Source: an uncultured Hyphomicrobiales bacterium (GTDB taxonomy: Bacteria > Bacteroidota > Ignavibacteria > Kapaibacteriales > UBA2268). From it: a stretch of DNA of 64,000 bases. The DNA is taken from the NCBI GenBank assembly GCA_964634885.1, contig CAZWLN010000011.1, positions 7,216-71,215 of the forward strand. Direction: 5' to 3'. Both the position numbers and the translations under genes were made by a program. Each line of letters begins with the position of its first letter. Positions within the stretch are counted from its first letter, which is position 1. Below, in pieces: positions 15,917 through 43,000 of this stretch. The notes under the pieces were generated by a model. It was not told where the DNA came from and made no database searches. It was given only the letters and a program-made list of their open reading frames with translations.

Positions 15917-16031
15917 AGTTTATTAGCCACAACCATTTGACAACTATTATTAAATTACTTCAAATTTTAGTTAAATGCAATAAATACAAATATTTCAACA
16001 ATATTTTAATAATTACTAACAAAATGAAGAA

Positions 16032-16106
16032 TATTTGCAAATACTTATAAAATATATTAGCAATAATCCGTTTTATACATTAGATTTGTAAAATATTTGC
16101 AAATAT
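16032..16106. promoter_or_regulatory. Two TATTTGCAAATA palindromes flanking a TAGATTTG -7 box upstream of the AAA ATPase
   Basis: Perfect 12-bp palindrome at 16032-16043, 14-bp ATATTTGCAAATAT at 16093-16106, TAnnTTTG at 16081-16088. Confidence 0.45.
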
Positions 16107-16127
16107 AGATAATAAATAGGTGATAAT

Positions 16128-17396
16128 ATGCTTTTAGAATTCAAAATCCGCAACTTTCGCTCAATCCGTGAGGAACTTACATTGTCGATGATGTCTTCCG
16201 GCAGGCTGGGAAAGAAAGACCTGCCCGACAATGTCGCCCTCCACGACAAGTTCAAAGCCGTTAAAAGCTTAGTCTTGTACGGCAGGAACGCTTCGGGGAA
16301 AAGTAATGTTATACTTGCAATACTTGCATTACAGAATATTGTCTCACAATCTGACAAGTTCAGGATTAATGAAAGGATACCTGTTTATGAGCCATTTTTA
16401 CTCGACGATGAATATATCAATAAACCTGTAATGTTTGCAATCGACTTCATCGGATATGATAATAACAGGTACAATTATCTTATCGAATTTAACAGTGATG
16501 AAATATTAAAAGAAGAATTATTTTTTTATCCTAATGGTGTAAAGTCAAAACTTTATAAGAGAGATGGTTTGGAACTATCATACGGAGACTATTTCTCCGG
16601 AAATAGAAAATCAATTGAAAATGAACTTTTAAAGAACCAATTGTTTCTTTCTAAGTCTTCAACAATGAGGTTTAAATATTTGAATGAAGTGTATTCATCT
16701 ATCATTGCTTATGTCAGTGTAATGAAAAATCAGACTGATTTTGACCGTGGACTTCCAATCGGAATGACAGAGGATAAAACAAAAAGAATGAATAGTATTA
16801 TTAATTTATTGAAAAATGCAGACACGAATATTCATGATTTTAAACTAATCAGACAAAATGCCGCAGAATCTCATTTTGCACAAAGTTTTTTATATAGTGT
16901 TCATGAAGATGAAAAGCCTTATTGGTCGTTTGAAAAAATTAATCTTAAAACAATGCATCCTGTCTTCAGAAACGGTCAAATAGTCAGATATACAGATTTT
17001 GATTTTACCCAGGAATCATCAGGAACAAAAAAACTATTCGGGATAAGCTATCAGTTACTTACCTGTCTTGATAACGGAGGAATTTTATTCGTAGATGAGC
17101 TTGACCAAAGCCTGCATCCTTTGCTTACAAGGATGTTGATTGGCCTGTTCCACAACCCGGAAACCAATCCCAAAAATGCTCAACTGATCTTTGCAACCCA
17201 CGACAGCTACTTACTCGATTCCGAACTGTTCCGCAGGGACCAGATAGGTTTTGTCGAAAAGGGCTATGAAGGGAATTCGGAATTGTACAGGTTGAGCGAC
17301 ATCAAAGGCGTAAGGAAGGACATTCCAATCGACAAGTGGTACCTGAGCGGAAGGTTCGGCGCCATTCCGGTCATCGGAGACTTCAGTCTGAAATAA
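16128..17396 (+). CDS. AAA_21-type ATPase (RloA/AbiEii/AbiLi-like)
   Basis: MLLEFKIRNFRSIR, GRNASGKSN, ESSGTKKLF, LFVDELDQSLHP, QLIFATHD, FRRDQIGF, YLSGRFGAIP. Confidence 0.9.
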   Translation: MLLEFKIRNFRSIREELTLSMMSSGRLGKKDLPDNVALHDKFKAVKSLVLYGRNASGKSNVILAILALQNIVSQSDKFRINERIPVYEPFLLDDEYINKPVMFAIDFIGYDNNRYNYLIEFNSDEILKEELFFYPNGVKSKLYKRDGLELSYGDYFSGNRKSIENELLKNQLFLSKSSTMRFKYLNEVYSSIIAYVSVMKNQTDFDRGLPIGMTEDKTKRMNSIINLLKNADTNIHDFKLIRQNAAESHFAQSFLYSVHEDEKPYWSFEKINLKTMHPVFRNGQIVRYTDFDFTQESSGTKKLFGISYQLLTCLDNGGILFVDELDQSLHPLLTRMLIGLFHNPETNPKNAQLIFATHDSYLLDSELFRRDQIGFVEKGYEGNSELYRLSDIKGVRKDIPIDKWYLSGRFGAIPVIGDFSLK

Positions 17397-17583
17397 TAAG
17401 CAAACAAAAAAGAAATAGACAGGGGATCACACATTTGTGATCTGTCTGCATATACCGATGTCCACAAATTAGTGAAGGCAATGATTGGATAATTGAAATC
17501 TTAGTGGGCTTTGAAGTTGTTCCCGTTCCGAAGTCAGTGGTTGTTTTTGTTCAATGGAAAGACAGGGCCAGGGATAAAATAAA

Positions 17584-17625
17584 AATCATTCCAAACGACA
17601 TCCTGAGAATACATTTGGAATGATT
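17584..17625 (-). terminator. Probable terminator of the RRM gene
   Basis: aatcattccaaa-N18-tttggaatgatt (12-bp stem), followed on the minus strand by a T-rich run. Confidence 0.5.
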
Positions 17626-17715
17626 AAAAGTTTAAGCGATTAGAAAGGATGATTACTAAGCCTTATCAGATTGTGTCAATCAATTCTGATTGAGGGGCTT
17701 AACATCATTCGGATC

Positions 17716-17979
17716 CTAATACATTCTTCTATTTGATTGTGGTTTTTCCTGCGCTAATTTTACAGTGATTGTCCTGCCCTGTATATCAGTTTCATTCAAT
17801 CCGTCCATTGCTTTTCTGGCAGCGTTGTCAGACATTTCGACAAAACCGAAGCCACGAGACATTCCGGTTTCTCTGTCAGTAATAATTTTGAGAGAATCGA
17901 TTTCTCCAAATTCTCTAAATTCCGAAGTCAATTCGGCTTCGGTCATGCTGTTGGGAAGGTTCCCGACAAATAATTTCAT
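17716..17979 (-). CDS. RNA-binding protein, single RRM domain (copy 1)
   Basis: RNP2 LFVGNL and RNP1 RGFGFVEM. Confidence 0.95.
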   Translation of the reverse strand: MKLFVGNLPNSMTEAELTSEFREFGEIDSLKIITDRETGMSRGFGFVEMSDNAARKAMDGLNETDIQGRTITVKLAQEKPQSNRRMY

Positions 17980-18027
17980 ATAAAATCCTAAAAATTAAAA
18001 ATTCTTAATCACTATTGATTAATAGAC

Positions 18028-18093
18028 TACAAAATTACAAATATTATGATTATATATATTACAGAAATCGCAGAATATATTACATAATTCACA
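18028..18093 (-). promoter_or_regulatory. RRM1 promoter: -7 box plus conserved direct-repeat operator (copy 1)
   Basis: Minus strand TGTGAATTATGTAA-N12-TTTCTGTAAT, then 20 nt, then TAATTTTGTA. Same layout as at 27972-28037. Confidence 0.7.
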
Positions 18094-18322
18094 GATTATT
18101 GATAATATTTCGATTTTTTGGTCTCATGGAAGAAAAAAGACGGATGAAGTCTATGGAGTCGAAGGATTAACAAACTGTATGAATGCTTAAAGCTGAAAAC
18201 CGGACCCATGATTGCTGCTTTATGGCTTACACCTGTGTGCGGAGGGATCAATAATCCTTACACACCGGCAGTCTATACAAATATAAGAAATCCAACAAAG
18301 CACAATTGATAAAATTAACTAT

Positions 18323-18354
18323 AATTATATAAATCTTTCCCGGATTTCTGTAAC
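18323..18354 (+). promoter_or_regulatory. Direct-repeat operator (copy 2) upstream of the radical SAM gene
   Basis: AATTATATAA-N12-TTTCTGTAAC, with the same 12-nt spacer as the other two copies. Confidence 0.55.
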
Positions 18355-18417
18355 GAATGTTTTTCAGTTAAGTATTAATTTATTAAAAAGATAAAAGTAC
18401 TATATTGGAATGGAAAT

Positions 18418-19899
18418 ATGAATGCCTTACTAATCTACCCGGAGTACCCGGCTACATTCTGGAGTTTTAAATATGCCCTGTCATTTATAAATAAAAAAGC
18501 TTCGCTTCCGCCTTTGGGTTTGCTTACTGTCGCTTCAATGCTCCCCGTTCAATGGGATAAAAAGCTGGTTGACATGAATGTATCCGAATTGAAAGATGAG
18601 GACATCGAATGGGCAGACTATGTCCTGATCAGCGGGATGACGGTTCAAAGGGCATCGGCACAAGAGGTAATCGACAGGGTAAGGCAATTTGGGAAATTGA
18701 TTGTTGCCGGAGGGCCTTTGTTTACAAACGAAACGGAGTCTTTCAAGAACGTGGATTGCTTTGTGCTCAACGAAGGCGAGGTCACTATCCCTATGTTTCT
18801 GGAAGGACTGAAAAACGGCGACCTGAAAAGGGTGTACTCATCCGCCGAAAGGCCTGAGATGACCAAAACACCGCTGCCGGACTGGTCGTTGATCGATCCC
18901 GGCGATTACTCTTCGATGTCGATACAAATCACACGCGGATGTCCCTACAATTGCGATTTCTGTGATATTGTGGTTATTAACGGCAGGGTTCCGAGATTGA
19001 AGACTGTGGCTCAGGTCAGGTCCGAACTCGACGCAATTTACAACACCGGCTGGAGAGGCAGCCTGTTTATTGTCGATGATAATTTCATCGGCAATTATAG
19101 CAAGGTGAAACAAATACTATCCGGAATAATCGAATGGATGGATGAGAAAAAGAGGCCTTTCTCCCTGTCAACCGAAGCTCCCATCACGCTTGCCGACAAT
19201 GAAGATATTGTCGATCTGATGCGAAAAGCCAATTTTGTGAAGGTCTTCGTAGGCATTGAAACGCCGGATGAAGAAGGCTTAAAGTCATGCGGCAAGCACC
19301 AGAATCTCAACATGAACCTAACCGAAAAAGTGAAATGGCTTCAAAGGAATGGAATCGAAGTCCAGGGTGGGTTCATCGTAGGTTTTGATACAGATACGCC
19401 CGGTATTTTCGACAATATGATCAGGTTCATCCAGGGAAGCGGCATCGTAACGGCAATGGTAGGCTTGCTCCATGCCATGCCGGAAACAAACCTGTATAGG
19501 AAACTTCAACACGAAGACAGGATCATCAACGCGCCAACAGGTAACAATACGGACAGCACACTGAATTTCCTGCCGAAGATGAACATTGACACTCTAACCG
19601 AGGGATACCGGAAAATCCAGGACACTATTTTCTCACCCAAGCCATTTTACAGGAGAGTAAAAGTGTTTCTGAAGGAATACCGCAGTCCGAAGGTATCATC
19701 GGGATTGACAGTGGCTACACAGATAAAAGCGCTTTCAAAATCGATATTAAAAATGGGGATAATTGAAAAAGGAAAAATTCATTTCTGGAAAGTACTGATT
19801 TGGACTACATTTCGCAAACCAAGGTTGTTCCCGTTAGCAATTACGATGTCTATCTACGGCTATCATTTCAGGCAGGTACTCCTGAACCAGAATATATAG
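18418..19899 (+). CDS. B12-binding class B radical SAM protein with DUF4070-like C-terminus (HpnP-like)
   Basis: PPLGLLTVAS B12-binding start, CPYNCDFC (CxxxCxxC), FIVDDNF, GFIVGFDTD, C-terminal YGYHF. Confidence 0.88.
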   Translation: MNALLIYPEYPATFWSFKYALSFINKKASLPPLGLLTVASMLPVQWDKKLVDMNVSELKDEDIEWADYVLISGMTVQRASAQEVIDRVRQFGKLIVAGGPLFTNETESFKNVDCFVLNEGEVTIPMFLEGLKNGDLKRVYSSAERPEMTKTPLPDWSLIDPGDYSSMSIQITRGCPYNCDFCDIVVINGRVPRLKTVAQVRSELDAIYNTGWRGSLFIVDDNFIGNYSKVKQILSGIIEWMDEKKRPFSLSTEAPITLADNEDIVDLMRKANFVKVFVGIETPDEEGLKSCGKHQNLNMNLTEKVKWLQRNGIEVQGGFIVGFDTDTPGIFDNMIRFIQGSGIVTAMVGLLHAMPETNLYRKLQHEDRIINAPTGNNTDSTLNFLPKMNIDTLTEGYRKIQDTIFSPKPFYRRVKVFLKEYRSPKVSSGLTVATQIKALSKSILKMGIIEKGKIHFWKVLIWTTFRKPRLFPLAITMSIYGYHFRQVLLNQNI

Positions 19900-19999
19900 G
19901 TTATTGAGTTGAATAAAAAATAATTGTTCATTTAAAAGTGATTTCTTTTCGGGGGGTACATAATCAACTTCTTCTCAATCCAACGGTTTGAGGTAAATA

Positions 20000-22963
20000 A
20001 TGAAAATATTAATAGTTGATGACAATCAGGAAAGCCTGGAAAAGACAGAATTACTTTTCAGAAGAAACAACCATCGCGTTCATTCTGCTATCGGCGGCAT
20101 GCTGGCGCTTAAGAAGCTTCGTTCCGAAAAGTATGATATAATCATCTCCGAAATACAAATGCCGGCTATGGATGGTTTCAAACTGTGCAAGGAATGCAAA
20201 AAAGATATTGAATTGAGAAATATATGTTTTATATTCTATACAGGAACATTTGTCGATGATAAGGATGAAGAATTTGCTTTATTGTTAGGCGCACAGAGAT
20301 TGATACGCAAGCCACAAGAACCGGAAGTTCTTCACAGTATTATTAAGGAAATAATTGAAAAAAAAGGGAATTCCCAAATTGTACCGAAGAACATTATTGA
20401 AAAAGATGGAAGAGAGTGGCATAAGCTTATCAGTGAACGCCTGGTTACAAAAATAGAGAATAAGAATCATGATTTGGAAAATGAAATAGCTTCATATAAA
20501 AGTACGTTGAAAGCATTGAGCGCATCTGAAATCCAGTATCGCCGACTGTTTGAATCGGCAAAAGACGGCATTTTGATTCTCGACACAGACACTGGAAAGG
20601 TCGTTGACGTTAATCCCTATTTAATCAATATTTTACACAATAATTACGAACAAATCATCGGAAAAGCAGTGTGGGAATTGGGATTTTTAAATGATGTTAT
20701 TGCCAGCTATGACAAGTTCTATGAGTTATGTCAAAGGGAATACGTGCGTTACGAAGATTTGCCGCTTAAAACTGCCGACGGAAAACGTGTCGATGTGGAA
20801 TTTGTCAGCAATGTCTATCTCGTAAATAGCAACAAGGTTATCCAATGTAATATTCGCAATATTAGTGAACATAAGATAAAAGAAGATCAACTGAAACTTT
20901 TTGCCGTTATTCTCGAGCAATTGAACAGGCAAGATGAATGGCAAATTCTGATCAGCGATATATTGAAAGAATTAAAATTGTTTTCGGGATTCGATTCGGT
21001 AGGAATCCGGCTGAAGAATGGGAACGATTATCCATATTATCTTCAATATGGTTTTACAGAAGCAATTCTTACTGAGGAAAACAGGCTTTGTGCGACAAAC
21101 AAATATGGTTCCATAGACATGGATCAGGATGGCATGCCGGTACTTGAGTGTCAATGCGGAGTTGTGTTGTCAGGTAAAACAGATTCAGGAAAGCCTTATT
21201 ATACCAAAGGCGGCAGCTTTTGGACTAATCAATTTAGCGAATTAGAAGAGATGGGGTCCAATGATGACATTAGTACGCAAACCAGGAATAATTGCATTCA
21301 TTCAGGTTATATGTCTGTGGCATTACTACCGATTGTTACCGGCAATAAGACGGCCGGATTGCTGCAATTCAGTTGCAAACAACCCGATATGTTTACACTT
21401 AGCCTGATTGAATTCTATGAAAAAATTGCCTCGACTATCGGGATTGCTTATAACAGAATTCAGTCGGGAGAGAAAATCAGAAAAAGCGAAATCAAATATC
21501 GCGACTTAGTTGATAATGCATTGGTCGGTGTTTATCGAACTTCTTTGGAAGGCGAGATCACATATTGTAACGAAGCCATGCTAAATATATTAGAATTTGA
21601 AGGCAACGATTATAAAGAATTGAATACAAATGTTTCGTATAGGAATTCAGACGAAAGAAATTTATTGATAAATACAATCCGGGATGCCGGAACAATAAAC
21701 AATTTTGAAACTGAATTAATTACTTACAAGGGGAAAAAGATACATGTTGTTATTAACGGTAAGCTTGACGGCAATCAGCTTTCCGGTATGATACTCGACG
21801 ACACAGAACGCAAACTGGCTGAGCGGGAACTAAAGAAAGCACTCGAAAAAGCCGAAGAAAGAGACAAACTGAAAACCGCTTTCCTACACAATATGTCACA
21901 CGAAATACGAACCCCTCTGAATGGTATCATAGGGTTCTCTGAATTGCTTAAAAATGATGATATTACACGTGATGATATAGCCGAATTTACGGATATAATC
22001 AAGCGAAGCGGAAAAAGGCTTATTGAAATAGTGAATAATGTTCTCGAAATTGCCAGAATTGAGACAGGGCAAGTACAAATGGAAAAAAGACAAATTAATA
22101 TTAATTCAATTCTATCAGACTTATTTGACTTTTTTGCTCCATTGGCAAAGGTTAAGAGTCTTAATTTGGATTACCATATTTATAAAAATGATAAAAAAGT
22201 GCTGGTATATACTGATGAAACGAAGCTGCATCAGATACTTACCAATTTGATAAACAATGCAATAAAGTTTACCAAATCCGGCAGCATAGATTTTGGCTAT
22301 GTAATCAAAGGTAATACTGTTCAATTCTATGTAAAAGACACAGGAATCGGTATCCCGCCTGAGTTTATGGATAAAATCTTTAACAGGTTCATTCAGGTCG
22401 GACAGCCGCTTTCGAATGAGCATGAAGGAGCCGGGCTTGGGCTGGCTATTTGCAAAAGCCTGGTAGAATTGCTCGAAGGCAGAATATGGATTGAATCTGA
22501 AATTAACAAGGGTTCTACATTTTACTTTACATTGCCATATACTCCCGATGCAATACCAGCCAGGATAAATATTACATATACCGAAAACACAATTAAACAA
22601 ACTCCCGGAAAAATCCTGGTTGTTGAGGACGATCTGACAAGTTTCATGTATCTTAACAAACTTTTGGGAAAGCATGATATTTTTCCTTTACATGCTAAAA
22701 ATGGTAAACAGGCGGTCGATTTTGTAAATAATACACCAAGCATCGAATTAATACTAATGGATATAAAAATGCCATTAATGGACGGTATCGAAGCAATGAA
22801 AAAAATAAAGGAAATAAGGCCCGATTTACATGTCATTGCTCTGACAGCTTATGCTTTCACCGAGGAACGAAACAACATCCTATCCATCGGCTTTGATGAC
22901 TATATAGCAAAACCGATTGGAAAAGAGGCAATATTGGATGTCATTTGTAATTATATGAAATAG
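20000..22963 (+). CDS. Hybrid sensor kinase (REC-PAS-GAF-PAS-HisKA-HATPase-REC)
   Basis: H-box HNMSHEIRTP, N/G boxes (NNAIKFT, DTGIGI, GAGLGL), C-terminal REC LMDIKMP; the N-terminal REC has E at the phospho-Asp position. Confidence 0.92.
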   Translation: MKILIVDDNQESLEKTELLFRRNNHRVHSAIGGMLALKKLRSEKYDIIISEIQMPAMDGFKLCKECKKDIELRNICFIFYTGTFVDDKDEEFALLLGAQRLIRKPQEPEVLHSIIKEIIEKKGNSQIVPKNIIEKDGREWHKLISERLVTKIENKNHDLENEIASYKSTLKALSASEIQYRRLFESAKDGILILDTDTGKVVDVNPYLINILHNNYEQIIGKAVWELGFLNDVIASYDKFYELCQREYVRYEDLPLKTADGKRVDVEFVSNVYLVNSNKVIQCNIRNISEHKIKEDQLKLFAVILEQLNRQDEWQILISDILKELKLFSGFDSVGIRLKNGNDYPYYLQYGFTEAILTEENRLCATNKYGSIDMDQDGMPVLECQCGVVLSGKTDSGKPYYTKGGSFWTNQFSELEEMGSNDDISTQTRNNCIHSGYMSVALLPIVTGNKTAGLLQFSCKQPDMFTLSLIEFYEKIASTIGIAYNRIQSGEKIRKSEIKYRDLVDNALVGVYRTSLEGEITYCNEAMLNILEFEGNDYKELNTNVSYRNSDERNLLINTIRDAGTINNFETELITYKGKKIHVVINGKLDGNQLSGMILDDTERKLAERELKKALEKAEERDKLKTAFLHNMSHEIRTPLNGIIGFSELLKNDDITRDDIAEFTDIIKRSGKRLIEIVNNVLEIARIETGQVQMEKRQININSILSDLFDFFAPLAKVKSLNLDYHIYKNDKKVLVYTDETKLHQILTNLINNAIKFTKSGSIDFGYVIKGNTVQFYVKDTGIGIPPEFMDKIFNRFIQVGQPLSNEHEGAGLGLAICKSLVELLEGRIWIESEINKGSTFYFTLPYTPDAIPARINITYTENTIKQTPGKILVVEDDLTSFMYLNKLLGKHDIFPLHAKNGKQAVDFVNNTPSIELILMDIKMPLMDGIEAMKKIKEIRPDLHVIALTAYAFTEERNNILSIGFDDYIAKPIGKEAILDVICNYMK

Positions 22964-23106
22964 ATATTCAGACTCTCCGATTAAAAAGAATTGGATTCCC
23001 ACATGCATATCAATTTCCGGATCCTGAATGCCATATTCTGTGTGTCAGACCACAGCCGTTGCATTTCTCAGTCACAGGTATATGCAAACCTTTGCCGTGC
23101 AGAGAA

Positions 23107-23445
23107 TTACATATAGCCGTTTTTGATGACGGTCAGAATCATCTTAAACCGTTCATTCGCCCTGATAATATGAGCTGAATGTGCCGGAATGACAATTGAA
23201 CTGCCGGTTTCAATAAATTTTGCTTCTGAGTTGATAATAATTTCGGCCCTGCCTTCGATGACCTGCGCAAAAGAATCAAAAGGAATGGTTCTTTCGTCCA
23301 AAGCTTCCCCGTCGTCGAAAGACATGACAGAAACGTTTCCGGTAGCCTTTTTAATAATTGTTTTACTGACAATCGTATGAGGTTCATACTCTATTATTTC
23401 AACCAGGATTACCGGTTGCGACTTAACTATTTCGACACTGTTCAT
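23107..23445 (-). CDS. Cupin domain protein
   Basis: VMSFDDGE, QVIEGRAEII, IVIPAHSAHII. Confidence 0.85.
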   Translation of the reverse strand: MNSVEIVKSQPVILVEIIEYEPHTIVSKTIIKKATGNVSVMSFDDGEALDERTIPFDSFAQVIEGRAEIIINSEAKFIETGSSIVIPAHSAHIIRANERFKMILTVIKNGYM

Positions 23446-23490
23446 TGTAAATCCTGATTATTAATTTGTAAAATCTTTTTTATTATAGTA

Positions 23491-24456
23491 TCATTGCTGG
23501 TCATCAAGCCATTTCAGTAGTTCTTTGACGCTACCTGTTGCAAGGGCAATACACATGTCGGCAGCCCCATAATATACGTTAATAGTATCGCCGTCGGGTG
23601 CAATGGTGTGGCCGCAAGGGAACACGACTTTATTGACATCGCCTGTCAACTCGTATTGCTCTTCAGGACCAAACATCCAGTCATCAGACCGTTTAATGCA
23701 GAGTTCAGGCTTGTTCAAATCGAATAATGCCAGGCCCAGCCTGTAAATACAGCCGGCAGCATTTTGCTTGACACCATGATATATAATCAGCCAGCCGTCC
23801 GGCGTTTCAATTGGTGTAGATGAGAGCCCGATCTTATTGGCATCCCACCAACTGCCTCTCCTGGCTTCCATCATCAGTTTGTGGCTTCCCCAATGCCTTA
23901 AGTCGGGTGAATATGAAATCCAGATATGCGCCCTTGGAGAACTTACGGGACGATGAATTAAAGCCCAGTAATCGCCGATACGATGGGGCAGTAATGCCGC
24001 ATCCTTGTCTTCGGGCGACATAATAATGCCATATCGCTCAAAGGTGTGGAAGTCTTCCGTGAAAGCAAGCGCCACTCCGGGACCTTCAACTGCATATGCC
24101 GTATAGACGACAGCGTATTTTTTCAATTCCGGGACCCATGTAACGCGTGGGTCTTCAATGCCCCAGATTTCCTCGGGGAAATTCTCGGGTTCGGGCCTTA
24201 ATGTCCCTTCTTTATCGATAGCCCAATTATCTACCCCATTCTTTGAACGAGCGGCACAAAGATGAGACTGGCCGTTTCTTTCCTCTACACGGCACAGCAA
24301 CAGGGTTGTCCCGTCTTCCAAAAGAGTGGCGCCCGCGTTAAAAACACTGTTTACCGGATAGGGCCAATCGTCGGAAGTCAGTATTGGATTGTGCTTATAT
24401 CGGTGTAACAGTTTTATATATTGATGTCCCATTTTTTTCTTGTTGTTTTTTATCAT
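23491..24456 (-). CDS. GH130 family glycoside phosphorylase/glycosidase
   Basis: VFNAGA, GIEDPRV, KDAALLP, HRP, KIG, YHGV, VVFPCG, YYGAAD; ATGA overlap with the upstream glycosyltransferase. Confidence 0.9.
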   Translation of the reverse strand: MIKNNKKKMGHQYIKLLHRYKHNPILTSDDWPYPVNSVFNAGATLLEDGTTLLLCRVEERNGQSHLCAARSKNGVDNWAIDKEGTLRPEPENFPEEIWGIEDPRVTWVPELKKYAVVYTAYAVEGPGVALAFTEDFHTFERYGIIMSPEDKDAALLPHRIGDYWALIHRPVSSPRAHIWISYSPDLRHWGSHKLMMEARRGSWWDANKIGLSSTPIETPDGWLIIYHGVKQNAAGCIYRLGLALFDLNKPELCIKRSDDWMFGPEEQYELTGDVNKVVFPCGHTIAPDGDTINVYYGAADMCIALATGSVKELLKWLDDQQ

Positions 24457-26723
24457 AAAATTAAATTTTCAATATACCTCATCTCCAGAAGTGATTGTAG
24501 GAATGCCAATGTGGATTCGGCCCCCTGGTTTTCATTTGTTCTGTCGCTATGTAAGCCGTCGCGGCAACCACCGGTCGTTGGGTCGTAAATGGATAGATTC
24601 AGGTCATTCCTGCCAAGGAACCATTCGAATGCCCGCCGGGCTTCCTGACGCCAGCGTTCTTCGCCGGTAATCCTGTACGCTTCGAGACAGGCTGAAACCA
24701 TGGTTTGAGCCTCGACCGGCTGTTGGTCGAACCTTGCGCGTTCTCCGTTCCTGGGGAAAAATCCATTCGAACCGATGGGCACAAAATGTCCGCCTACCGA
24801 ATCGGCTTTCTGCAAATCGGCTAACCATTGCAGCGATTCGAGGCCTTTTTCTGTCATGGAACTGTTGGGTATCGAACTTCCGCCTATTAATAATGCATGC
24901 GGCAAAGCAGCATTGCAATAGCTCAGGCTCTTTTCAAACCACGGCCAGTTTGGGGAATGAATATTTTCATACAACGCAAGTAACCGTTCAGCCAATTCCG
25001 AACGTACATGACTTACCTTGCTGTCGCCCGCAAATCGTTGAGAATACTCGTTAATGCCCATGAGAGCGAAGGACCATGCGCGGGGGCTTGTCATTGTGAG
25101 AATAGCGGGCAGGGCCTGTTCGAAAAGCCTACCGGCAAGGCTTTGCAGAGAAGGCGTTTTTGACCTCCCCAGCACGGTGCCTAATGACCAAAGAGTTCGG
25201 CCGTGGCTGTCGTCTGAACCTGCTGTTTCAAGCCAATTGCGCCGGAAGTCAAGAAAATTCCTGAAATGGCCGTTGCCGCTGTTGAAAGCATACATAATGA
25301 ACGCAAGGTACCGGGAAGCCATTTTTGACGCTTCTCCGTTGTACACTGATTCCAACAAAATGCTGACAATCAGGGCACGGGCATTGTCGTCCGTTGTGTA
25401 TCCTTCTTCGTAGTTAGGTACAGAAAATACAGCATGTTGAAATATTCCCGTATCGTCCGTCATCCTTAACAGATGGTCGAGTTTGAGAGGTGGAAGTTCC
25501 CCGGGCTTTTCGTTCAAAGTCTTAACGACATGAACCGGGTGTTTTGTAGAATTCATGCGCTCTACACGTGCGCGCTGGAAGCTCTCCATATAGTGTTGTG
25601 CCGACTTGGACCATAACATCTCCCTGCCGAACATATAGGCCCGTTTACGCATCGCATGGCGGTTCTGTTCGTCGTCGAGCAGTCTGATTACCTGTTCCGA
25701 AAGAGTTTCAGGATCGTGAAAAGGCACAAGTACACCACGCTCTTCAGCCAGCATTTCTTCGGCATACCAATAGGGTGTGGAAATGACTGCTTTGCCGGCT
25801 CCCAGAGTGTAAGCCAGCGTGCCAGACGTGATCTGCGTTTCATTAAGATAGGGTGTGATGTATATATCAGCGGCGCCGATGAACTGAATCAGTTCATCAA
25901 TACTAACGAAGCGGTTATAGAATATTACCTGGCTTTCAACACCGTTCTCATGCGCCAGCCATTGAAGGGACAATCGGTAGTTTTCACCGTCGTTGCGTTT
26001 CACATGAGGGTGCGTTTCACCAAGAACAATATATACTACATTAGGATGGCGTTCAATAATTTTCGGAAGGGCTGAGATTACACTCTCTATTCCTTTGCTT
26101 GGGGACAGCAATCCAAAAGTTAACAATACGGTTTTGCCTTCGACGCTGAACAAGTCCTTGTGAAAACTCGGGTCGACAAAAGGTACGTCGGGTATGCCGT
26201 GATGGATCATGTCGATTTTTTCGGGTGGTACTTTGTATATATCCTGAAGGAATTCGGCTCCTCTTTCGCTCATTACTACCAATCTGTCCGAAAGAGCAGC
26301 AACTTTGTCAAGCACTAATTTCTGATCCTGATTCGGCTCTCGTAAAATTGTATGCAATGTTGTTACAATGGGCATCGTCAGTTCCCGCAATAAAGTAATG
26401 ATATGGCTTCCTGCCCTGCCTCCGAAAATACCGTATTCGAATTGAAGACATACGATATCGACATTATTAATATTTAAGAAATCGGAAGCACGACGATACG
26501 ACTCTATATCCTTTTCCATCAGTTCGAACCTTACCCGCGAGGGATAGTCATATCCTTCCTCGATGTCGTTGACGGGAATTGCGATGCAGGTCGTATTTGG
26601 GTATTCATCGGCGATGGCTTCGCTCAGGTCGGTAGTAAATGTTGCTATGCCACACTGCCGTGGCAAATAATTACCGATGAAAGCTATCCTGTTTATCGAT
26701 TTATTTTTTAAATTCTTTGACAT
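24453..26723 (-). CDS. GT4 glycosyltransferase fused to a C-terminal (alpha/alpha)-toroid glycosidase-like domain
   Basis: N-terminal GT-B domain (PRQCGIATFT, QFEYGIFGG, GLLSPSKGIE, SGTLAY, STPYWYAEE); C-terminal DDTGIFQHA, YTTDDNAR, FDQQPVEA, NQGAESTL. Confidence 0.88.
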   Translation of the reverse strand: MSKNLKNKSINRIAFIGNYLPRQCGIATFTTDLSEAIADEYPNTTCIAIPVNDIEEGYDYPSRVRFELMEKDIESYRRASDFLNINNVDIVCLQFEYGIFGGRAGSHIITLLRELTMPIVTTLHTILREPNQDQKLVLDKVAALSDRLVVMSERGAEFLQDIYKVPPEKIDMIHHGIPDVPFVDPSFHKDLFSVEGKTVLLTFGLLSPSKGIESVISALPKIIERHPNVVYIVLGETHPHVKRNDGENYRLSLQWLAHENGVESQVIFYNRFVSIDELIQFIGAADIYITPYLNETQITSGTLAYTLGAGKAVISTPYWYAEEMLAEERGVLVPFHDPETLSEQVIRLLDDEQNRHAMRKRAYMFGREMLWSKSAQHYMESFQRARVERMNSTKHPVHVVKTLNEKPGELPPLKLDHLLRMTDDTGIFQHAVFSVPNYEEGYTTDDNARALIVSILLESVYNGEASKMASRYLAFIMYAFNSGNGHFRNFLDFRRNWLETAGSDDSHGRTLWSLGTVLGRSKTPSLQSLAGRLFEQALPAILTMTSPRAWSFALMGINEYSQRFAGDSKVSHVRSELAERLLALYENIHSPNWPWFEKSLSYCNAALPHALLIGGSSIPNSSMTEKGLESLQWLADLQKADSVGGHFVPIGSNGFFPRNGERARFDQQPVEAQTMVSACLEAYRITGEERWRQEARRAFEWFLGRNDLNLSIYDPTTGGCRDGLHSDRTNENQGAESTLAFLQSLLEMRYIENLIL

Positions 26724-26739
26724 ATTACTAATCCTGCTA

Positions 26740-27597
26740 TTACTTGGGAAGCAAAGACTTTACTCCTGCCAATTCCCCGATTATATTAACCAACTCGGAT
26801 CCCTGTGGAACGATTACCTTGGCATTGTTTGCAAGAGAATTCTCAACAGCTTCGAGTTTTCTCATCAATTGCGCATTGCCGATGAAGTATTGATCAGCGG
26901 CTTCATTGACCAATTTTATAGAAGCGGCGTCGCCTTCGGCGTGCAATATCTTTGCCTGGCGGTATCCTTCGGCTTCCTTGATTTTTGCGCGTTTTTCGCC
27001 GTCAGCTACCGTTTCTCTTGCCGAGGCAAAGTCAACTGCTGCCACTTTTTCATTTTCAGCTTTTACGACTTTGTTCATTGTCTCTTGTACATCAGAGGGC
27101 GGGTCAATCTCTTTCAGTTCGGTTCGGACGATTTCGATTCCCCAGTTATGTGTTTCTTCGAGCAGCGTTCTGTGCAGTTCGGCGTTGATCTTTCCTCTTT
27201 CGCTGTTGGCGGACTTCAGGGTCAGGGTACCAATTATGTTCCTCAGAGTCGTTCGTGCAAGGTTGACAATCTGGTACATATAATTGTTGACATTGTACTG
27301 CGAGTTTTTTACGCTTTCTTCGTCCGATTTGACCTTGAAATAGACCTGGGCGTCAACCTTTGCGTTCAGGTTGTCATTGGTAATAATCTCCTGGCGTTCC
27401 GCATTGATCATCGATTCGGTTACATTTACCCTGTACATCCGTTCGATAAATGGGAATACCCAGTGAAAGCCCGGCTCGGCAAACCTGTTGTATTTACCCA
27501 GGCGCTCGGTCAATCCCCTGTGAGTAGGCCTGACAATCCTTACGCCGCTCCAAACAAATAATACGACGAACAGAGCTCCTCCCAAAATAATTTCCAT
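26740..27597 (-). CDS. SPFH/band 7 membrane protein
   Basis: N-terminal TM, ERLGKY..PGFHW, ITNDNLNAKVDA, WGIEIVRTELKEI. Confidence 0.93.
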   Translation of the reverse strand: MEIILGGALFVVLFVWSGVRIVRPTHRGLTERLGKYNRFAEPGFHWVFPFIERMYRVNVTESMINAERQEIITNDNLNAKVDAQVYFKVKSDEESVKNSQYNVNNYMYQIVNLARTTLRNIIGTLTLKSANSERGKINAELHRTLLEETHNWGIEIVRTELKEIDPPSDVQETMNKVVKAENEKVAAVDFASARETVADGEKRAKIKEAEGYRQAKILHAEGDAASIKLVNEAADQYFIGNAQLMRKLEAVENSLANNAKVIVPQGSELVNIIGELAGVKSLLPK

Positions 27598-27655
27598 ACA
27601 AACCTCCTATATATTTTTACAATTCCAAACAGAAAGTACCAGCCGACTTCTGATA

Positions 27656-27919
27656 TTAACAGTATCTTCTGACGGTATCCTTTTTATCCTGTGCAATACG
27701 AACTGATATTTTCCTGCCGTCCATGTCCGAATTGTTAAGCTTATTTATAGCTCTGCGGGCATCGTCATCAGCCATTTCAAGGAAACCGTAACCACGGGAT
27801 CTTCCTGTCTCTTTGTCAGTAATTATTTTCAAAGACTCTATATCGCCATATTCATAAAATTCGGACTTCAATTCGTCTTCGGTAACACTGTTGGGAAGAT
27901 TCCCCACAAATAGTATCAT
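27656..27919 (-). CDS. RNA-binding protein, single RRM domain (copy 2)
   Basis: LFVGNL and RGYGFLEM; about 53/87 residues identical to copy 1 by manual alignment. Confidence 0.95.
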   Translation of the reverse strand: MILFVGNLPNSVTEDELKSEFYEYGDIESLKIITDKETGRSRGYGFLEMADDDARRAINKLNNSDMDGRKISVRIAQDKKDTVRRYC

Positions 27920-27971
27920 ACATTATCCTGAATAGATAATTAAACCAGGTTTTAACCTGTTTATTTCCGGA

Positions 27972-28037
27972 TACAAAGTTATGGTATTGAAAACAAGTAA
28001 AATTACAGAACTTCGGGAATTACTAACATAATTCACA
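27972..28037 (-). promoter_or_regulatory. Promoter of the RRM2-SPFH-GT4-GH130-cupin operon: -7 box plus operator (copy 3), overlapping the AraC stop codon
   Basis: Minus strand TGTGAATTATGTTA-N12-GTTCTGTAAT, then 20 nt, then TAACTTTGTA. Confidence 0.7.
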
Positions 28038-28593
28038 CATTGTTTATTCCGTGCCTTCTTTGGTTGCTCATCTTTTTGAAAAAAGTAGGGGTTAAACCGG
28101 TTACTTTCTTGAATTGATTGGATAGATGCTGGACGCTGCTGTAATGGAGCTTCCAGGCGATCTCCGAGAGATTGAGCTCGTTGTAAACCAACAATTCTTT
28201 TACGCGTTCGATTTTGTGGCGGATAATAAATTGCTCAATGGTTGTACCGTGGACTTCCGAGAACAGATTGGAAATATATGTATAATCGTAATTCAGTTTT
28301 TCGCTTAGATACTGGGAAAAGTTGATTTTCAATTCATCATCCGAATAATGAATAAGCTCGATGATTATGCTTTTTATCTTTTCGATCAACTGCGATCTCT
28401 TATCTACAAGCAATTCGAGGCCCGTTTTCCTTAGGTTCTTGTCGAGTTGCTCCAGTTGTTCAGACGATATGCTTCCGACAACGTTTACTTCGCCCAGTTC
28501 GAGGTTGTTGTATTGAATCCCGATCTTTTCGAGTTCCGATTGCAACACCATCTTACAGCGAATGCAAACCATATTTTTAATGAATATTTTCAT
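28033..28593 (-). CDS. AraC-family transcriptional regulator with N-terminal CxxC (HMA-like) domain
   Basis: KNMVCIRC N-terminus; C-terminal AraC double HTH (LSEIAWKLHYSSVQHLSNQFKKVTGLTPT). Start at MKIFIK preferred. Confidence 0.92.
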   Translation of the reverse strand: MKIFIKNMVCIRCKMVLQSELEKIGIQYNNLELGEVNVVGSISSEQLEQLDKNLRKTGLELLVDKRSQLIEKIKSIIIELIHYSDDELKINFSQYLSEKLNYDYTYISNLFSEVHGTTIEQFIIRHKIERVKELLVYNELNLSEIAWKLHYSSVQHLSNQFKKVTGLTPTFFKKMSNQRRHGINNV

Positions 28594-36184: not shown

Positions 36185-38308
36185 ATGAGTTCATTCATCG
36201 ATCCCGAAATGCAGGAAATTTTCGAGGGTTTTGTTGTCGAAACGACCGAACTGCTCGACAGCCTTTCGCAGGACCTGATGCTCCTCGAAAGCCAACCCGA
36301 CGACCTGGAATTACTTAATAAAATTTTCAGGAGTTTTCACACCGTCAAAGGTACGTCCTCGTTCATGGGATTTGACACCATCGCCGGCATTACCCACCAT
36401 GCCGAGGATATTCTCAACAAACTGAGAAAATCGGAGCTTACCGTTAGCCAGCCCATCATCGACGTACTGCTCGAAGTTCATGACTGGATTGAAACGCTGA
36501 TGGCCCGTCTGACCGAAGGCGACGACTCTCCAGTCGATTACTCCGAGACAATCCGGATGCTGGAAAAGCTCAAGGACCCGGACTATAAACCCGAACAGGA
36601 ACCATCGGCAGCCCCGCCCGGAGAACAAGCCCTGCCTGAAGAAGAAGCTTTCAACGAAAGTTTCGACGATGGCACCGACGAAAAGGAATTCAGCGCGCTC
36701 GACAGCGTCCTCTCCAATTCCGACATGGTCTCGAAGCCCGGCGACTTCACAGATGAAGAACTGGCTTTGCTCGACGCGGCCTTTGCTGAAGTCAACTCGG
36801 CTTTCCTCGAAGAAAACCTCGCTGCAAAAGAAAAACCTGCCGACGAAGCCGAATCGGGTGAAAGTGTACCCGCATCAGAGGAAACACCCGATCCCGAATT
36901 AATGGCAGAACTGCCGGAAGAATCAGAAGAACCTGCCGACGAAGTGCCTGCAGTTGAAGAGCTTCCGGTTGAAAAGAAAAAAATACCTGAGACACCGGCT
37001 GCACTCACTCCCAAGAAAGAAACACCACCCGCGCAGGCTCAACCCGAAGCGGCAAAAGCCGACGACAAGAAAGGCCCTGTTAAAGCGGCAAAAGGAGCCG
37101 GCGAAACAATCAGGGTGGACGTCGAAAGGGTGGAAACTCTCATGGACCTTTCCGGTGAACTCGTGTTGGGAAGGAACAGGCTGGCACAGATTACAGACAC
37201 AATCGAACAGGAATTTGAAAAGGTCAAGAGTGTACGCGACCTGATGGAAACAACGGCACAGATAGACTTCGTTACCTCCGAGATACAGTCCGCTGTAATG
37301 AGAATGAGGATGGTGCCTGTGGCAAAACTCTACCAGAAAGCTCCGCGTATCGTTCGCGACCTGTCGAAGGAGTTCGGCAAGAAAATAAAGCTGGTAGTCA
37401 AGGGTGAAGAAACCGAGATCGACAGGGGCATCATCGAAGAGCTCAACGATCCGCTGGTTCACATGATCCGCAATTCCTGCGACCACGGCATTTCTACTCC
37501 CGAAGAAAGGGTGAAGGAAGGTAAACCTGTCGAAGGTACTGTAATACTCGACGCCGAACAGGAAGGCAACGCAATTGTCCTGCGAATTTCTGACGACGGA
37601 AGAGGGCTCGACCCCGACAAACTGAAAGAAAAAGCCGTCTCCAAAGGCATCATTACCGAAGAACAAGCTCAGTTGATGTCGAAACGAGAAGCTCTCCAGT
37701 TAGTGTTCTTACCGGGCTTCAGTACTGCCGCCAAAGTTACGTCCGTCTCAGGCAGAGGTGTAGGTATGGATGTGGTAAGAACCAACATACAAAACCTTAA
37801 GGGCATGATCGAAATCGAATCGGAAGTTGGCGTAGGAACAACTTTTGTCATTAAGCTGCCCTTAACACTGGCCATCATCCAGGGTGTGCTGGTGAGGATT
37901 TGCTCTGAAACCTACGCAATACCTCTCAGCTCTGTCGTCGAAATCGTGTCTGTCGATATGAAAAGCATTTATTCCGTCAATAAAAATGAAGTGGTCAGGC
38001 TCCGCAATGATGTCTATCCCTTAGTCAGGCTCGACAGGGTACTCAGGGTAAACGGCTCGGACCTCGGACTTGAGGGCAGGTACATCGTCGTTGTCGGCAT
38101 GGGCCACCAACGCGTCGGATTCGTCGTGGACGAGTTGCTCGGCCAGCAGGAGATCGTCATTAAGTCACTCGGGGAATACCTGGGGCACATCAGCGGCATT
38201 GCCGGCTCGACAATCCTCGGCGACGGCAGGGTTATTATGATTGTTGACGTTGCGGAACTGGTGCAGTTCGCATTCAGGAACCAGGGCAATTTGCAGGCTG
38301 TAGTATAG
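36185..38308 (+). CDS. cheA: Chemotaxis histidine kinase CheA
   Basis: Hpt FHTVKG, acidic linker, TIRVDVERVE dimerisation domain, HMIRNSCDHG, DDGRG, SGRGVGMDVV, C-terminal CheW-like domain. Confidence 0.97.
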   Translation: MSSFIDPEMQEIFEGFVVETTELLDSLSQDLMLLESQPDDLELLNKIFRSFHTVKGTSSFMGFDTIAGITHHAEDILNKLRKSELTVSQPIIDVLLEVHDWIETLMARLTEGDDSPVDYSETIRMLEKLKDPDYKPEQEPSAAPPGEQALPEEEAFNESFDDGTDEKEFSALDSVLSNSDMVSKPGDFTDEELALLDAAFAEVNSAFLEENLAAKEKPADEAESGESVPASEETPDPELMAELPEESEEPADEVPAVEELPVEKKKIPETPAALTPKKETPPAQAQPEAAKADDKKGPVKAAKGAGETIRVDVERVETLMDLSGELVLGRNRLAQITDTIEQEFEKVKSVRDLMETTAQIDFVTSEIQSAVMRMRMVPVAKLYQKAPRIVRDLSKEFGKKIKLVVKGEETEIDRGIIEELNDPLVHMIRNSCDHGISTPEERVKEGKPVEGTVILDAEQEGNAIVLRISDDGRGLDPDKLKEKAVSKGIITEEQAQLMSKREALQLVFLPGFSTAAKVTSVSGRGVGMDVVRTNIQNLKGMIEIESEVGVGTTFVIKLPLTLAIIQGVLVRICSETYAIPLSSVVEIVSVDMKSIYSVNKNEVVRLRNDVYPLVRLDRVLRVNGSDLGLEGRYIVVVGMGHQRVGFVVDELLGQQEIVIKSLGEYLGHISGIAGSTILGDGRVIMIVDVAELVQFAFRNQGNLQAVV

Positions 38309-40016: not shown

Positions 40017-43000
40017 CTATTCGAGTAATGCAACAAATTCATTAAGTATTAAATTAATATTGTCAAAATTGAATGTCTCACATTCGATATACAGGCGGTT
40101 TGAGTATTCCATCAGCTTCTCGGAATTGCTTTCTTCTGCGATATGCATTATTTCGCCGGCAAATGTTTCAATCTCGTCGATGAACATCGACTGCCTCAAC
40201 TCCTCAGATCTTTCAAGCCACTTCTCCCTGAGCATCATCTTCAAATCTTCGGCAATGGGAGCGCTTTCTTCGATGGACTCCGTTTCAGTTTCAGCTTCAG
40301 GCCCCGGCGCAGACAGATCATTGAAAGCGATGTGCCTCGCAATCTCGGCAATCAGCAACTGCCTCGAAACGGGTTTGATCAGGAAGCCGTCGCAAAGGCT
40401 TTGTATGTCCTTCTCCTTGGTACCAAGCACAGATGCTGTTAATGCAACGACGGGAATGGAGCTGTATTCCTTACTTTGTTTCAAAATGCCTGTTGCTTCC
40501 CAGCCGTCCATTACCGGCATCTGCATATCCATCAGAATCAGTTCGGGACGGATGTTTTCGATTTGCCTCAAAGCATCCCTGCCGTTTTCTGCCTCGATAA
40601 TGTTCAGGTTCGACGCTTCGAGGAATCCTTTCAGGACAGTCCTGTTCGAGGGTATATCTTCGACGATGAGCAGCGTTTTACCCTTGAAATCGAGTTTCAA
40701 TTCCCTGCTTTCGACCATAGGGACATAGGACGCAGGGTCGGCAATTTCTACATCATATAGATATATCTTGAAATTGGACCCTTTGCCGACTTCACTCTCT
40801 ACGGCGATATTGCCGTTCATCATTTCAGTAAGCCTTTTGGTAATCGTCAGTCCCAGGCCTGTACCGCCATACTTACGGGTGTTCTGGCCTTCCTGCTGCC
40901 TGAAAGCTTCGAATATCAGGTTCTGCTGATCGGGGGGGATGCCTTTGCCTGTGTCTGTTACCTCGAATACCAGGTCAACGGCACCGGAGCCGTCCTGGTT
41001 TCCGATATTCCTGATGGAGATGGTAATGCTGCCTTCATCGGTAAACTTAATGGCGTTGCCGACAAGGTTAAGAAGGACCTGGCGCATACGTGCACCGTCC
41101 ATTCGTACGGTTTGTGGCACATCCTTTCTAATGTCAATATCAAATGTCAGTCCTTTCTCTTTGATTTTCAGCCCGAATATCTGCTGCATTTCCTGGCACA
41201 GTTCAGAGAGGTTGACCGTTTCGAGACGAAGCTCGAGCCTGCCGGACTCAATCTTCGACAGGTCGAGAATATCATTAATGAGAGTCAGCAGGTTCTCTCC
41301 GCCGATTCTTATGCCCTGCAGGTATTCCCTGTAAACCGGATCGGGGATGTGTTCCATCAGCAGTTCCGAGAAGCCGAGAATAGCATTCATCGGAGTCCTG
41401 ATCTCATGGCTCATATTGGCTAAGAATTCGGACTTTGCTTTGTTCGCAGTGTCGGCCATTACTTTTGCCCTGCGCAGGAACTCTTCCTGCTGTGAGCGTT
41501 TGATCGAGGCGGCAATGGCGCCGGCAAACATCCTGTAAATGGATATATATGTTTCGGACATTATATATTCAATATTGCAGTCATTAAAGCCGATGATACC
41601 CCAAAATTCATTGTCTATGAAGATGGGCAGGACAATGACGGAGTTAAGGCCGTGTTTCAGCAGCATATTTTCCAGTTTCCTGTTGGCTGACAGATTGCCT
41701 ATGCTTCCGTAGAGTACCGTATCCTGCTTCAATTCGTCGAAGAAAGAAAAGCAGAGGCCCGACGGGATCCTGTCGGATGCTGTGTTGGCGTCGCCGCTGC
41801 TGTTTGAAAGTGTGGAACAGAAAATTTTCGGGGAAGAGTCTTCACTCTCATTTGACTTTTTATTCTCATAAACATAGGAGCAATCGGCGCCGATTGTCCT
41901 GCTGACAACAGACAACGCTTCAGACAGGGATTCGTTGATTTCACTTTTAATCAGCAGAAGGTTACCGGCGTTGGCAACAGCGCTGAGGAGTTTGTCTTTG
42001 TGTTCCAGCTCTTCCTCGGTTTTCTTTCGTACAGTAATCTCATTCTGCAATTCCCAGCTTTTCCATTCCATTTCATTAGCATACTGCTGGATTTTCTTCT
42101 GGTTCATGATTCTGTCGGAGATGTCCCTGTTAATTCCTCTGTACCCCCTCAGAACGCCGGCTTCGTCGATGATGGGGCTGCCGTTTGTTTCAATGAACCT
42201 TTCTTTCCCCGACGAGTCGATCATCCTGCTCTCGTACGAGTTGATCCACTGCTGGTATTTCTTCGAACTGTTCAGGTACTCCCCAACACGGAAAGCTTCC
42301 TGGGCAGCCATGAAATCGAAAGGCTTCCTGCCAAGTACTTCTTCGGCGTCATAGCCCAGAATGTCAGACACCTGTGGGCTGGAATAGACATAGATATCAT
42401 CGCTGTCGATCTCCCATACCCATTCATTAATATTTTCAACTAAGGACCTGTACTTCGACACGCTCTGCCTCACAGCGTCGATGAAGTTCTTTCTTTCGGT
42501 AATATCCTGTGCGATGCCGGCAATTCTGGCAATATCGTGAGACTCGCTGTAAATGGGGAACATTCTGACCCACAGCCACCGGATCTCCCTGTCCGGCTTG
42601 ACGATGCGAATTTCGTCGTCGAACAGGCCGTCGCGGAGGAAGGACTGGGAGTTGAGCTTCCTGAATACTTTGGGTTTGTCCTTCCTGTAAATGAAATTGA
42701 AGATGCTGCTGTTGTTTTCGTACAGGTCATCTATGTTGTGCCCGACAATTTTCGTGAAGGACGGATTGATGTACAGTATCTTATCCTTCGTCATCAGCCA
42801 GAAAATCTCATCTACGTTCTCTGCAAGTTGCCTGAATCTTTCCTCGCTGTCCCTGATGGCTTCTTCGGCTTCTTTCTTTTCGGTAATATCCTTGCAGAAA
42901 ATCAGGTATTCATCGTCTGAGATACGTGTTGCTTCAGAAGATACATAGACCGAGGATTTGTCTTTCCTGATCAGGTAATACTCCGCCTTAGCGCTGCCGG

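Follow-up and report, generated by a model that had tools for sequence, protein, structure and literature searches.

A widely conserved two-part promoter element in Bacteroidota and Ignavibacteriota and its candidate regulator, an AraC-family protein with an HMA-like domain

The 64,000-nucleotide (nt) stretch of contig CAZWLN010000011.1 analyzed here (positions 7,216 to 71,215 of the forward strand; referred to as the window and numbered from its first letter) carries three copies of a DNA motif that a preliminary description had proposed as an AraC operator. We find that the three sites are authentic instances of a two-part DNA site that is widely conserved, and that they are located before two RRM genes (RRM1 and RRM2) and a B12-binding/radical-SAM gene. 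We consider it probable that they are the operators of a 186-amino-acid (aa) AraC-family regulator with an HMA-like N-terminal domain (HMA-AraC, encoded at 28033-28593 on the minus strand), a predicted class II activator of stress-type genes. The analysis establishes the motif with its geometry and conservation, the association with the regulator gene, and the folds of the domains; binding by this protein, activation as opposed to repression, the extents of the operons, and the signal are inferred.

The conserved element and its promoter geometry

The motif was first written as TTATRTWA-N12-KTTCTGTAA. An exact search with this pattern gave exactly three matches in the window, at 18059-18087 (-), 18325-18353 (+), and 28003-28031 (-), and so recovered all of the copies that had been reported at 18058-18093 (-), 18323-18354 (+), and 28002-28037 (-). 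No matches were expected on the basis of 100 shuffles, and a tolerance of two mismatches yielded no extra ones. Because the same three sites gave rise to the pattern, this shuffle statistic is circular, and an independent test by a matrix from other genomes was therefore needed.

A genome collection was scanned with the window AraC protein, providing 80 loci with homologs of 60-77% identity that span many orders of Bacteroidota and Ignavibacteriota; the closest homologs are found in metagenome-assembled genomes (MAGs) of Ignavibacteria. Most of these loci have ..GATGTGTGAATnATGTAA-N11-AATTGTGTAAC.. around the AraC stop codon, and a weight matrix was built from 55 such non-identical sites, all from other genomes. 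When the full foreign matrix was applied to the 64-kb window, the top two positions were the RRM2 site (42.5 bits) and the RRM1 site (35.9 bits), in comparison to a null maximum of 4.2. A stricter scan used only the matrix columns that had no part in choosing the seed sites; its top three positions in the window were the radical-SAM site, the RRM2 site, and the RRM1 site, with 24.1, 22.3, and 21.0 bits, respectively, and the corresponding null maximum had a mean of 11.2, a standard deviation of 2.4, and a largest value of 17.7. No fourth site exceeded the null in the 64-kb window with these seed-independent columns. The next-best positions (40023-40055, 59123-59240, and 15949-15977) were rejected as further sites, their scores lying within the null range. 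The matrix identified 151 sites in 760 kb of AraC-anchored loci versus 0-1 in Markov shuffles, and the background matching of AT-rich DNA that the preliminary description had named as its refutation is thus not what is seen. Likewise, 60 column-permuted matrices applied to the real DNA gave a mean of 1.25 matches (maximum 6) versus 154 with the real matrix. In a separate motif-first scan, metagenome contigs were searched for an exact pattern, which was found at no fewer than 126 sites in at least 120 loci.

The copy before RRM2 spans 28002-28041 (-) (AATGTGTGAATTATGTTAGTAATTCCCGAAGTTCTGTAAT) and consists of a distal and a proximal direct repeat with a 21-base-pair (bp) period; the copies before RRM1 and the radical-SAM gene are located at 18058-18097 (-) (AATCTGTGAATTATGTAATATATTCTGCGATTTCTGTAAT) and 18315-18354 (+) (TTAACTATAATTATATAAATCTTTCCCGGATTTCTGTAAC), the latter without the distal TGTG block. 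The 21-bp spacing claimed for the half-sites of both RRM copies is exact, with starts at 18058/18079 and 28002/28023, and a three-way alignment of the window sites shows AATTAT.T.A....TTC....A.TTCTGTAA to be invariant. The logo of 150 unique sites comprises AATGTGTGAATnATGTAA, 11 weakly conserved bases, and then AATTGTGTAAC. The element thereby consists of two direct AATnRTGTAA(C) repeats whose period is 21 bp and an extra block, AATGTGTG, upstream of the distal unit, and its limits run from that block through the C/T following GTAA. The sequence AATnRTGTAA-N11-AATnRTGTAA occurred 57 times with N = 11 and 0 times with N = 3-10 or 12-24. Two direct-repeat units approximately two helical turns (21 bp) apart are the arrangement expected for class II AraC/XylS sites, and the distal unit is richer in information than the proximal unit. 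The TGTG block is equally conserved at sites without a nearby AraC gene and therefore is not a coding artifact of the AraC C terminus; because it is kept at sites far from any AraC gene, it belongs to the operator. The motif as first written is thus real, but its borders were too narrow, and it represents a truncated, lineage-specific version of the actual consensus, the window sites being a lineage variant whose proximal unit contains TTCTGTAA.

The regions containing RRM1 and RRM2, including their upstream sequences, are paralogous (66% identity over 404 nt). An alignment of the two promoters, counted by eye, revealed identities of 27/37 for the motif and 9/10 for the -7 box versus only 5/20 for the spacer, in agreement with the divergence of the intervening bases that had been described. 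Both RRM promoters possess a -7 box 20 nt past the operator, TAATTTTG at 18030-18037 (-) for RRM1 and TAACTTTG at 27974-27981 (-) for RRM2. The longer -7 elements TAATTTTGTA (18037..18028, -) and TAACTTTGTA (27981..27972, -) each begin exactly 20 nt after ..TTCTGTAAT, as had been stated for the gap from the motif to TAAnTTTGTA. The radical-SAM promoter has an imperfect box, as noted from the outset (TAATTTAT, 18376-18383, +), located 22 nt past GTAA and 21 nt past the C that follows it; its final A instead of G is common in the family.

Downstream of the matrix, the sequence tAnnTTTG emerges from the family, though those positions played no part in site finding; the counts in the 150 sites are A56 127, T59 143, T60 141, T61 119, and G62 71. 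The box starts 21 nt past the last motif base in 97 of the 150 unique sites and 20 nt past it in 15, with the RRM window sites in the 20-nt class and the radical-SAM site in the majority 21-nt class, and the spacer from operator to box holds approximately zero information in the logo. Among the matches listed from the motif-first scan, the -7 box was found at an offset of 20 or 21 for 110 of 126 sites. The family logo and the three window boxes both agree with TAnnTTTG, the -7 element of the Bacteroidota housekeeping sigma factor. The operator takes up the -33 position, 19-21 nt upstream of the -7 box, and hence no TTTG is conserved there (logo positions 30-35 are TAACAC). Having no -33 TTTG of their own, the promoters therefore look activator-dependent, unable to fire unaided. 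The family-wide fixed distance to the -7 box and the lack of a conserved -33 TTTG are consistent with the initial suggestion that the proximal half-site would lie over the -33 region in the manner of an activator site.

Of the pooled site records (both scans plus the window, not de-duplicated), 261 of 280 precede an open reading frame (ORF), the predicted 5′ untranslated region (5′UTR) having a median length of 37 nt, and few sites fall within long open frames, in each case among the matches listed. Contigs from four metatranscriptome assemblies cover the RRM1 coding region plus a leader of 17-22 nt, reaching 17996-18001, and end 22-29 nt before the predicted RRM1 transcription start.

A weak 76-nt similarity (66% identity, E value 3e-4) was observed between 18279-18353 (+) and 28003-28075 (-), where the radical-SAM site continues into sequence similar to the 3′ end of AraC. 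This similarity may be what is left of an AraC gene followed by the radical-SAM gene, an order seen in many other genomes; tblastn detected no AraC remnant. A decayed AraC gene beside RRM1, considered as the source of the shared TGTGA, was also sought by tblastn and was not found.

The regulator gene and its product

The proposed link of the motif to AraC is strengthened by gene neighborhood, from which binding itself may be surmised. The site is located at the 3′ end of the AraC homolog or no more than 250 nt downstream, on the same strand, in 72 of the 80 loci, and it overlaps the AraC stop codon in 53 sites from these loci. The window gene, which ends just upstream of RRM2, follows this pattern, its TGA stop (28033-28035) lying inside the distal operator block. 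The distal block AATGTGTGAAT (window 28033-28041, -; 53 sites, loci L001-L080) encodes this TGA together with the last two or three codons (..N-V-stop), and the AraC homologs without a 3′ site (e.g., L006, L026, and L039) have different ends. No conserved partner, such as a sensor or anti-factor, was found upstream of AraC among the AraC loci; the upstream neighbors are not conserved, and the conserved linkage is therefore that to the downstream site. Only four sites are positioned upstream of an AraC-family start among the matches listed, all of them in arrays of tandem paralogs, and AraC is therefore the carrier of the site and not merely its target.

For the motif-first sites with enough upstream DNA, and among the matches listed, an AraC gene ends at or just before the site in 8 of 103 (approximately 8%). 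A pattern in which every regulator gene has a site but most sites are elsewhere is characteristic of a global regulator. Nine loci (L013, L024, L036, L038, L046, L055, L065, L066, and L076) contain two or three HMA-AraC paralogs in tandem or close to one another, with 40-67% identity to the query, and several HMA-AraC paralogs may share one operator type, as do MarA, SoxS, and Rob.

The 186-aa protein matches Pfam HTH_18 (8.3e-17) and HTH_AraC (1.3e-8), and its AlphaFold2 model, based on 36 homologs, has a predicted local distance difference test (pLDDT) score of 90.8. Residues 1-62 form the HMA-like domain, of beta-alpha-beta-beta-alpha-beta topology with pLDDT values above 90 (DSSP assignments E2-6, H11-24, E28-32, E35-38, H44-55, and E60-62). 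This unit is followed by a linker helix (65-82) and then by the seven helices of an AraC double helix-turn-helix domain; the approximately 100-aa C-terminal domain with two helix-turn-helix motifs places the protein in the AraC/XylS family. Foldseek matched the C-terminal part to AraT, YesN-C, MarA, SoxS, Rob, and the AraC DNA-binding domain (the MarA-like structures include 1bl0 and 7w5w) and the N-terminal part to TTHA1718, CopZ, and Atox1, with a probability of 1.0 and template modeling scores of 0.58-0.67 over 63-68 residues. Met8, Val9, Cys10, Arg12, and Cys13 (M-V-C-x-R-C) are invariant in the 36 homologs, with the CxxC at the start of helix 1. Each of the two predicted recognition helices contains family-wide invariant residues, in keeping with the constancy of the operator from order to order. 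The targets are not metal-efflux genes, and the ligand could therefore be a metal, a cluster, or a disulfide switch.

Genes behind the sites and the wider regulon

RRM2 (27656-27919, -; 87 aa), the first gene behind its operator, matches Pfam RRM_1 (9e-23) and NCBIfam Rbp_regulator (4e-28), and RRM1 (17716-17979, -; 87 aa, Pfam RRM_1) is 62% identical to it. Farther along the minus strand behind RRM2 are genes that Pfam assigns as SPFH/HflK-like (26740-27597), a 756-aa GT4 glycosyltransferase (24453-26723), a GH130 phosphorylase-like protein (23491-24456), and a 112-aa cupin (23107-23445). A simple scan found no convincing terminator between these minus-strand genes (23107-27597), and RRM2 is possibly cotranscribed with the SPFH-GT4-GH130-cupin genes. 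The order AraC-RRM-GT4-GH130-cupin is reproduced in an Ignavibacteria MAG (L005, 5233-8838). Among the matches listed, 59 of 200 loci contain homologs of the cupin, 32 of GT4, and 15 of GH130, and the window cupin is 55% identical to the representative of the cupin cluster. The GT4-GH130-cupin neighborhood might make a protective glycoside or a compatible solute.

Divergent from RRM1 is the B12-binding/radical-SAM/DUF4070 gene (18418-19899, +; Pfam and NCBIfam), which is followed by a gene for a PAS hybrid histidine kinase (20000-22963, +; Pfam). Radical-SAM homologs of 46-50% identity are found directly behind AraC plus site in other genomes. All three window sites thus precede genes or clusters that bear the same site elsewhere, amounting to strong phylogenetic footprinting of each copy, the third included.

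The cupin is the gene found most often directly behind the site. In the AraC-anchored loci it follows the site in 38 site-to-ORF pairs, the DUF4070 radical-SAM gene in 15 pairs plus the window's own, RRM genes in 3 pairs plus the window's two, and an AraC paralog in six; further genes behind these sites encode an approximately 52-aa membrane protein, CsbD, PAS kinases, GH130, KaiC-like ATPases, universal stress proteins, the GT4 protein, and a desaturase. Among the matches listed from the motif-first scan, CsbD (18 sites) and ice-binding-like proteins with a type IX secretion tail (8 sites) lead, along with the cupin, the small membrane protein, and an OmpA-family lipoprotein; YtxH and dodecin account for 2 sites each. 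In some metagenome contigs, two or three sites occur within approximately 2 kb before successive small genes (L105, 5259-7553; L109, 4748-6636; and L114, 473-737), and the two opposite-strand sites of L114 stand back to back, as the RRM1 and radical-SAM sites do in the window. The targets found (CsbD, YtxH, Usp, RRM, ice-binding, and desaturase) point to a general stress or cold program. The RRM-1 proteins of Bacteroides are transcriptionally cold-induced and autoregulate through their 5′UTRs, in work that names no transcription factor (PMC13370968).

Hairpins with 5-bp stems were observed in both RRM leaders soon past the predicted start, CAGGTTAAAACCTG at 27946-27959 (-) for RRM2 and CTATTAATCAATAG at approximately 18009-18022 (-) for RRM1. 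They could serve as an autoregulatory or temperature-sensitive element, an idea arising because the Bacteroides Rbp genes autoregulate through their 5′UTRs. Known structured RNAs were also considered and rejected; a search against Rfam found nothing that reached the gathering score anywhere in the window, and even at E ≤ 1 nothing matched around the sites.

Positions 16000-24000 have a low guanine-plus-cytosine content (0.36-0.41 versus 0.43-0.52 elsewhere in the window) and hold genes for an AbiEii-like AAA_21 ATPase (16128-17396), RRM1, the radical-SAM protein, and the hybrid kinase; this segment may have been acquired or rearranged. A CheA chemotaxis kinase gene (36185-38308, +) and several large PAS hybrid kinase genes (such as 40017-43760) suggest that the organism is motile and resembles Ignavibacteriota more than typical Bacteroidota. 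In combination with the Ignavibacteria MAGs that contain the closest AraC homologs, CheA makes membership in Ignavibacteriota probable. The whole stretch was found in contigs of a biofilm metagenome run.

Mode of action, alternatives, and relation to known systems

If the -7 box is taken as -12 to -5, the proximal unit would extend from approximately -44 to -34, the distal unit from -65 to -55, and the TGTG block to -72. The protein would then cover approximately -72 to -34, next to the -7 box of a housekeeping-sigma-type promoter without its own -33 TTTG. Two double helix-turn-helix domains would bind in tandem, with the strong distal unit as the anchor, and the weaker proximal unit, abutting the -33 region, would allow recruitment of RNA polymerase by class II activation. 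The HMA-like domain with its invariant CxxC may set the activity through a metal or thiol-redox signal and, purely by analogy, might bridge two monomers, possibly as the CopZ/Atox1 bridged dimer. The targets in the window would be RRM2, RRM1, and the radical-SAM/histidine-kinase pair, probably also SPFH-GT4-GH130-cupin, and these genes would be part of a larger dispersed stress- or cold-type regulon across Bacteroidota and Ignavibacteriota.

More tentatively, and as something we regard as possible rather than probable, HMA-AraC might be the master activator of an undescribed general stress/cold regulon, filling the role of an alternative sigma factor with the CxxC as a metal- or redox-dependent pairing switch. 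The targets of such an activator would be CsbD, YtxH, Usp, cupin, ice-binding proteins, RRM chaperones, KaiC-like ATPases, and the B12 radical-SAM enzyme, and pairing of the HMA domains would let a second DNA-binding domain occupy the promoter-proximal repeat.

Several observations weigh against the assignment of the sites to HMA-AraC as a class II activator. Among the matches listed, 85 of the 103 motif-first sites have no AraC gene in the locus, which is expected for a global regulator yet leaves room for a different, unlinked factor. Paralogs of 40-60% identity bear the same site at their 3′ ends where checked, making the acting paralog ambiguous. In the radical-SAM copy, the distal TGTG block is missing and the -7 box is imperfect. 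For the N terminus, the top Pfam match is HMA, but it falls below threshold (16.4 versus 24.8 bits, E value 0.013), and the HMA assignment rests on the fold and the CxxC. Finally, the RNA contigs show transcription of RRM1 alone, and none of them crosses its -7 box.

A different factor (another transcription factor or an alternative sigma factor) could read the site, the HMA-AraC genes merely adjoining members of the regulon. We consider this unlikely. Most motif-first sites among the matches listed are without a nearby AraC gene, the regulon resembles the alternative-sigma regulons of other phyla (CsbD, YtxH, and dodecin), and the gene downstream is an AraC paralog in six site-to-ORF pairs, all of which speaks for a different factor. 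Given an AraC gene, however, the site is present in 72/80 cases and is fused to the stop codon, no other neighbor is conserved, and the approximately 8% of unbiased sites directly behind one gene family, among the matches listed, is far above chance. An alternative sigma factor in particular is difficult to reconcile with an element that reaches approximately -72 as a 21-bp direct repeat, unlike a sigma -35 element, and that retains the housekeeping-type tAnnTTTG.

It is quite improbable that HMA-AraC is instead a repressor that occludes the -33 region until a signal releases it. The proximal repeat does overlap the expected -33 contact of RNA polymerase, and some AraC-family members repress, but logo positions 30-35 conserve no -33 TTTG, and occlusion does not require the strict distance to the -7 box that is kept within 1 nt at 112 sites and that typifies contact between an activator and polymerase. 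Very improbable is action of the element as RNA, in a 5′ leader or attenuator, as opposed to a DNA operator. RRM genes of related phyla are known for conserved leaders, and small hairpins are present in both RRM 5′UTRs; nevertheless, the motif is upstream of the -7 box, its repeat is direct and not inverted, and the RNA contigs stop short of it. Hardly credible is the idea that the sites are functionless, two being left over from the RRM duplication and the third a coincidental match in AT-rich intergenic sequence, for although RRM1/RRM2 and their upstream regions are paralogous (66%, 404 nt) and the pattern was derived from the very sites it matches, a matrix built from unrelated genomes recovers all three sites, column-permuted matrices give approximately 1 match versus 154, the motif and -7 box are kept within a paralogous stretch whose 20-nt spacer is 5/20 identical, and the third site precedes a gene bearing the same site in other genomes.

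A full-text literature search, which did not cover subscription-only literature, found no description of the regulator, the motif, or the regulon. The HMA-type sensor, the large stress-type regulon in these phyla, and the location of an operator within the stop codon of a regulator gene appear to be new; the mode of action is of a known kind. How the general stress/cold response is organized in Bacteroidota and their relatives is poorly known, and the finding offers an operator rich in information, promoters of fixed architecture, a candidate regulator whose sensor is unusual, and recurrent targets. Cultured carriers exist in Draconibacterium, Maribellus, Mariniphaga, Sunxiuqinia, Solitalea, and Lacihabitans, and the site is usable as an annotation handle for activator-dependent promoters in MAGs. 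A regulator stop codon embedded in the gene's own operator is an unusual case.

AraC at araI1-araI2, XylS at Pm, and RhaS/RhaR are class II AraC/XylS activators of Proteobacteria. The system described here resembles AraC, XylS, and RhaS in its C-terminal double helix-turn-helix domain, its 21-bp direct repeats, and the predicted position of the proximal unit at the -35 equivalent, and its distal unit is the richer in information, as I1 is compared with I2. In contrast, its sensor is an HMA-like CxxC fold of approximately 62 residues and not the AraC cupin/arm or the XylS effector domain, the promoters have the Bacteroidota-type -7 element TAnnTTTG, a large, dispersed regulon takes the place of a single catabolic operon, and the operator overlaps the stop codon of the regulator gene.

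The small MarA-like fold, paralogs that apparently share a site type, and many scattered stress targets recall MarA, SoxS, and Rob and their marbox. MarA and SoxS, however, are monomers that bind a single asymmetric 20-bp box of variable position and orientation and are without a sensor domain, whereas the regulator here has an HMA-like N terminus and two phased repeats in fixed position and orientation. That N terminus shares with CopZ, Atox1, TTHA1718, and MerP the beta-alpha-beta-beta-alpha-beta fold and a CxxC at the junction of loop 1 and helix 1; unlike in the HMA metallochaperones, it is fused to a DNA-binding domain, its sequence is under the Pfam HMA threshold, and the targets are not metal-efflux genes.

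With respect to regulon content, CsbD, YtxH, universal stress, dodecin, small membrane, and OmpA-family proteins are targets in common with SigB of Bacillota, EcfG of Alphaproteobacteria, and RpoS. Control here would be exerted by an activator with a housekeeping-type promoter and not by a sigma factor, and the regulon also includes ice-binding proteins, RRM proteins, a desaturase, KaiC-like ATPases, and the B12 radical-SAM enzyme. RRM1 and RRM2 share their protein family with RbpA, RbpB, and RbpC of Bacteroides; the work on these proteins names no transcription factor (PMC13370968), and the operator described here offers a candidate in environmental relatives.

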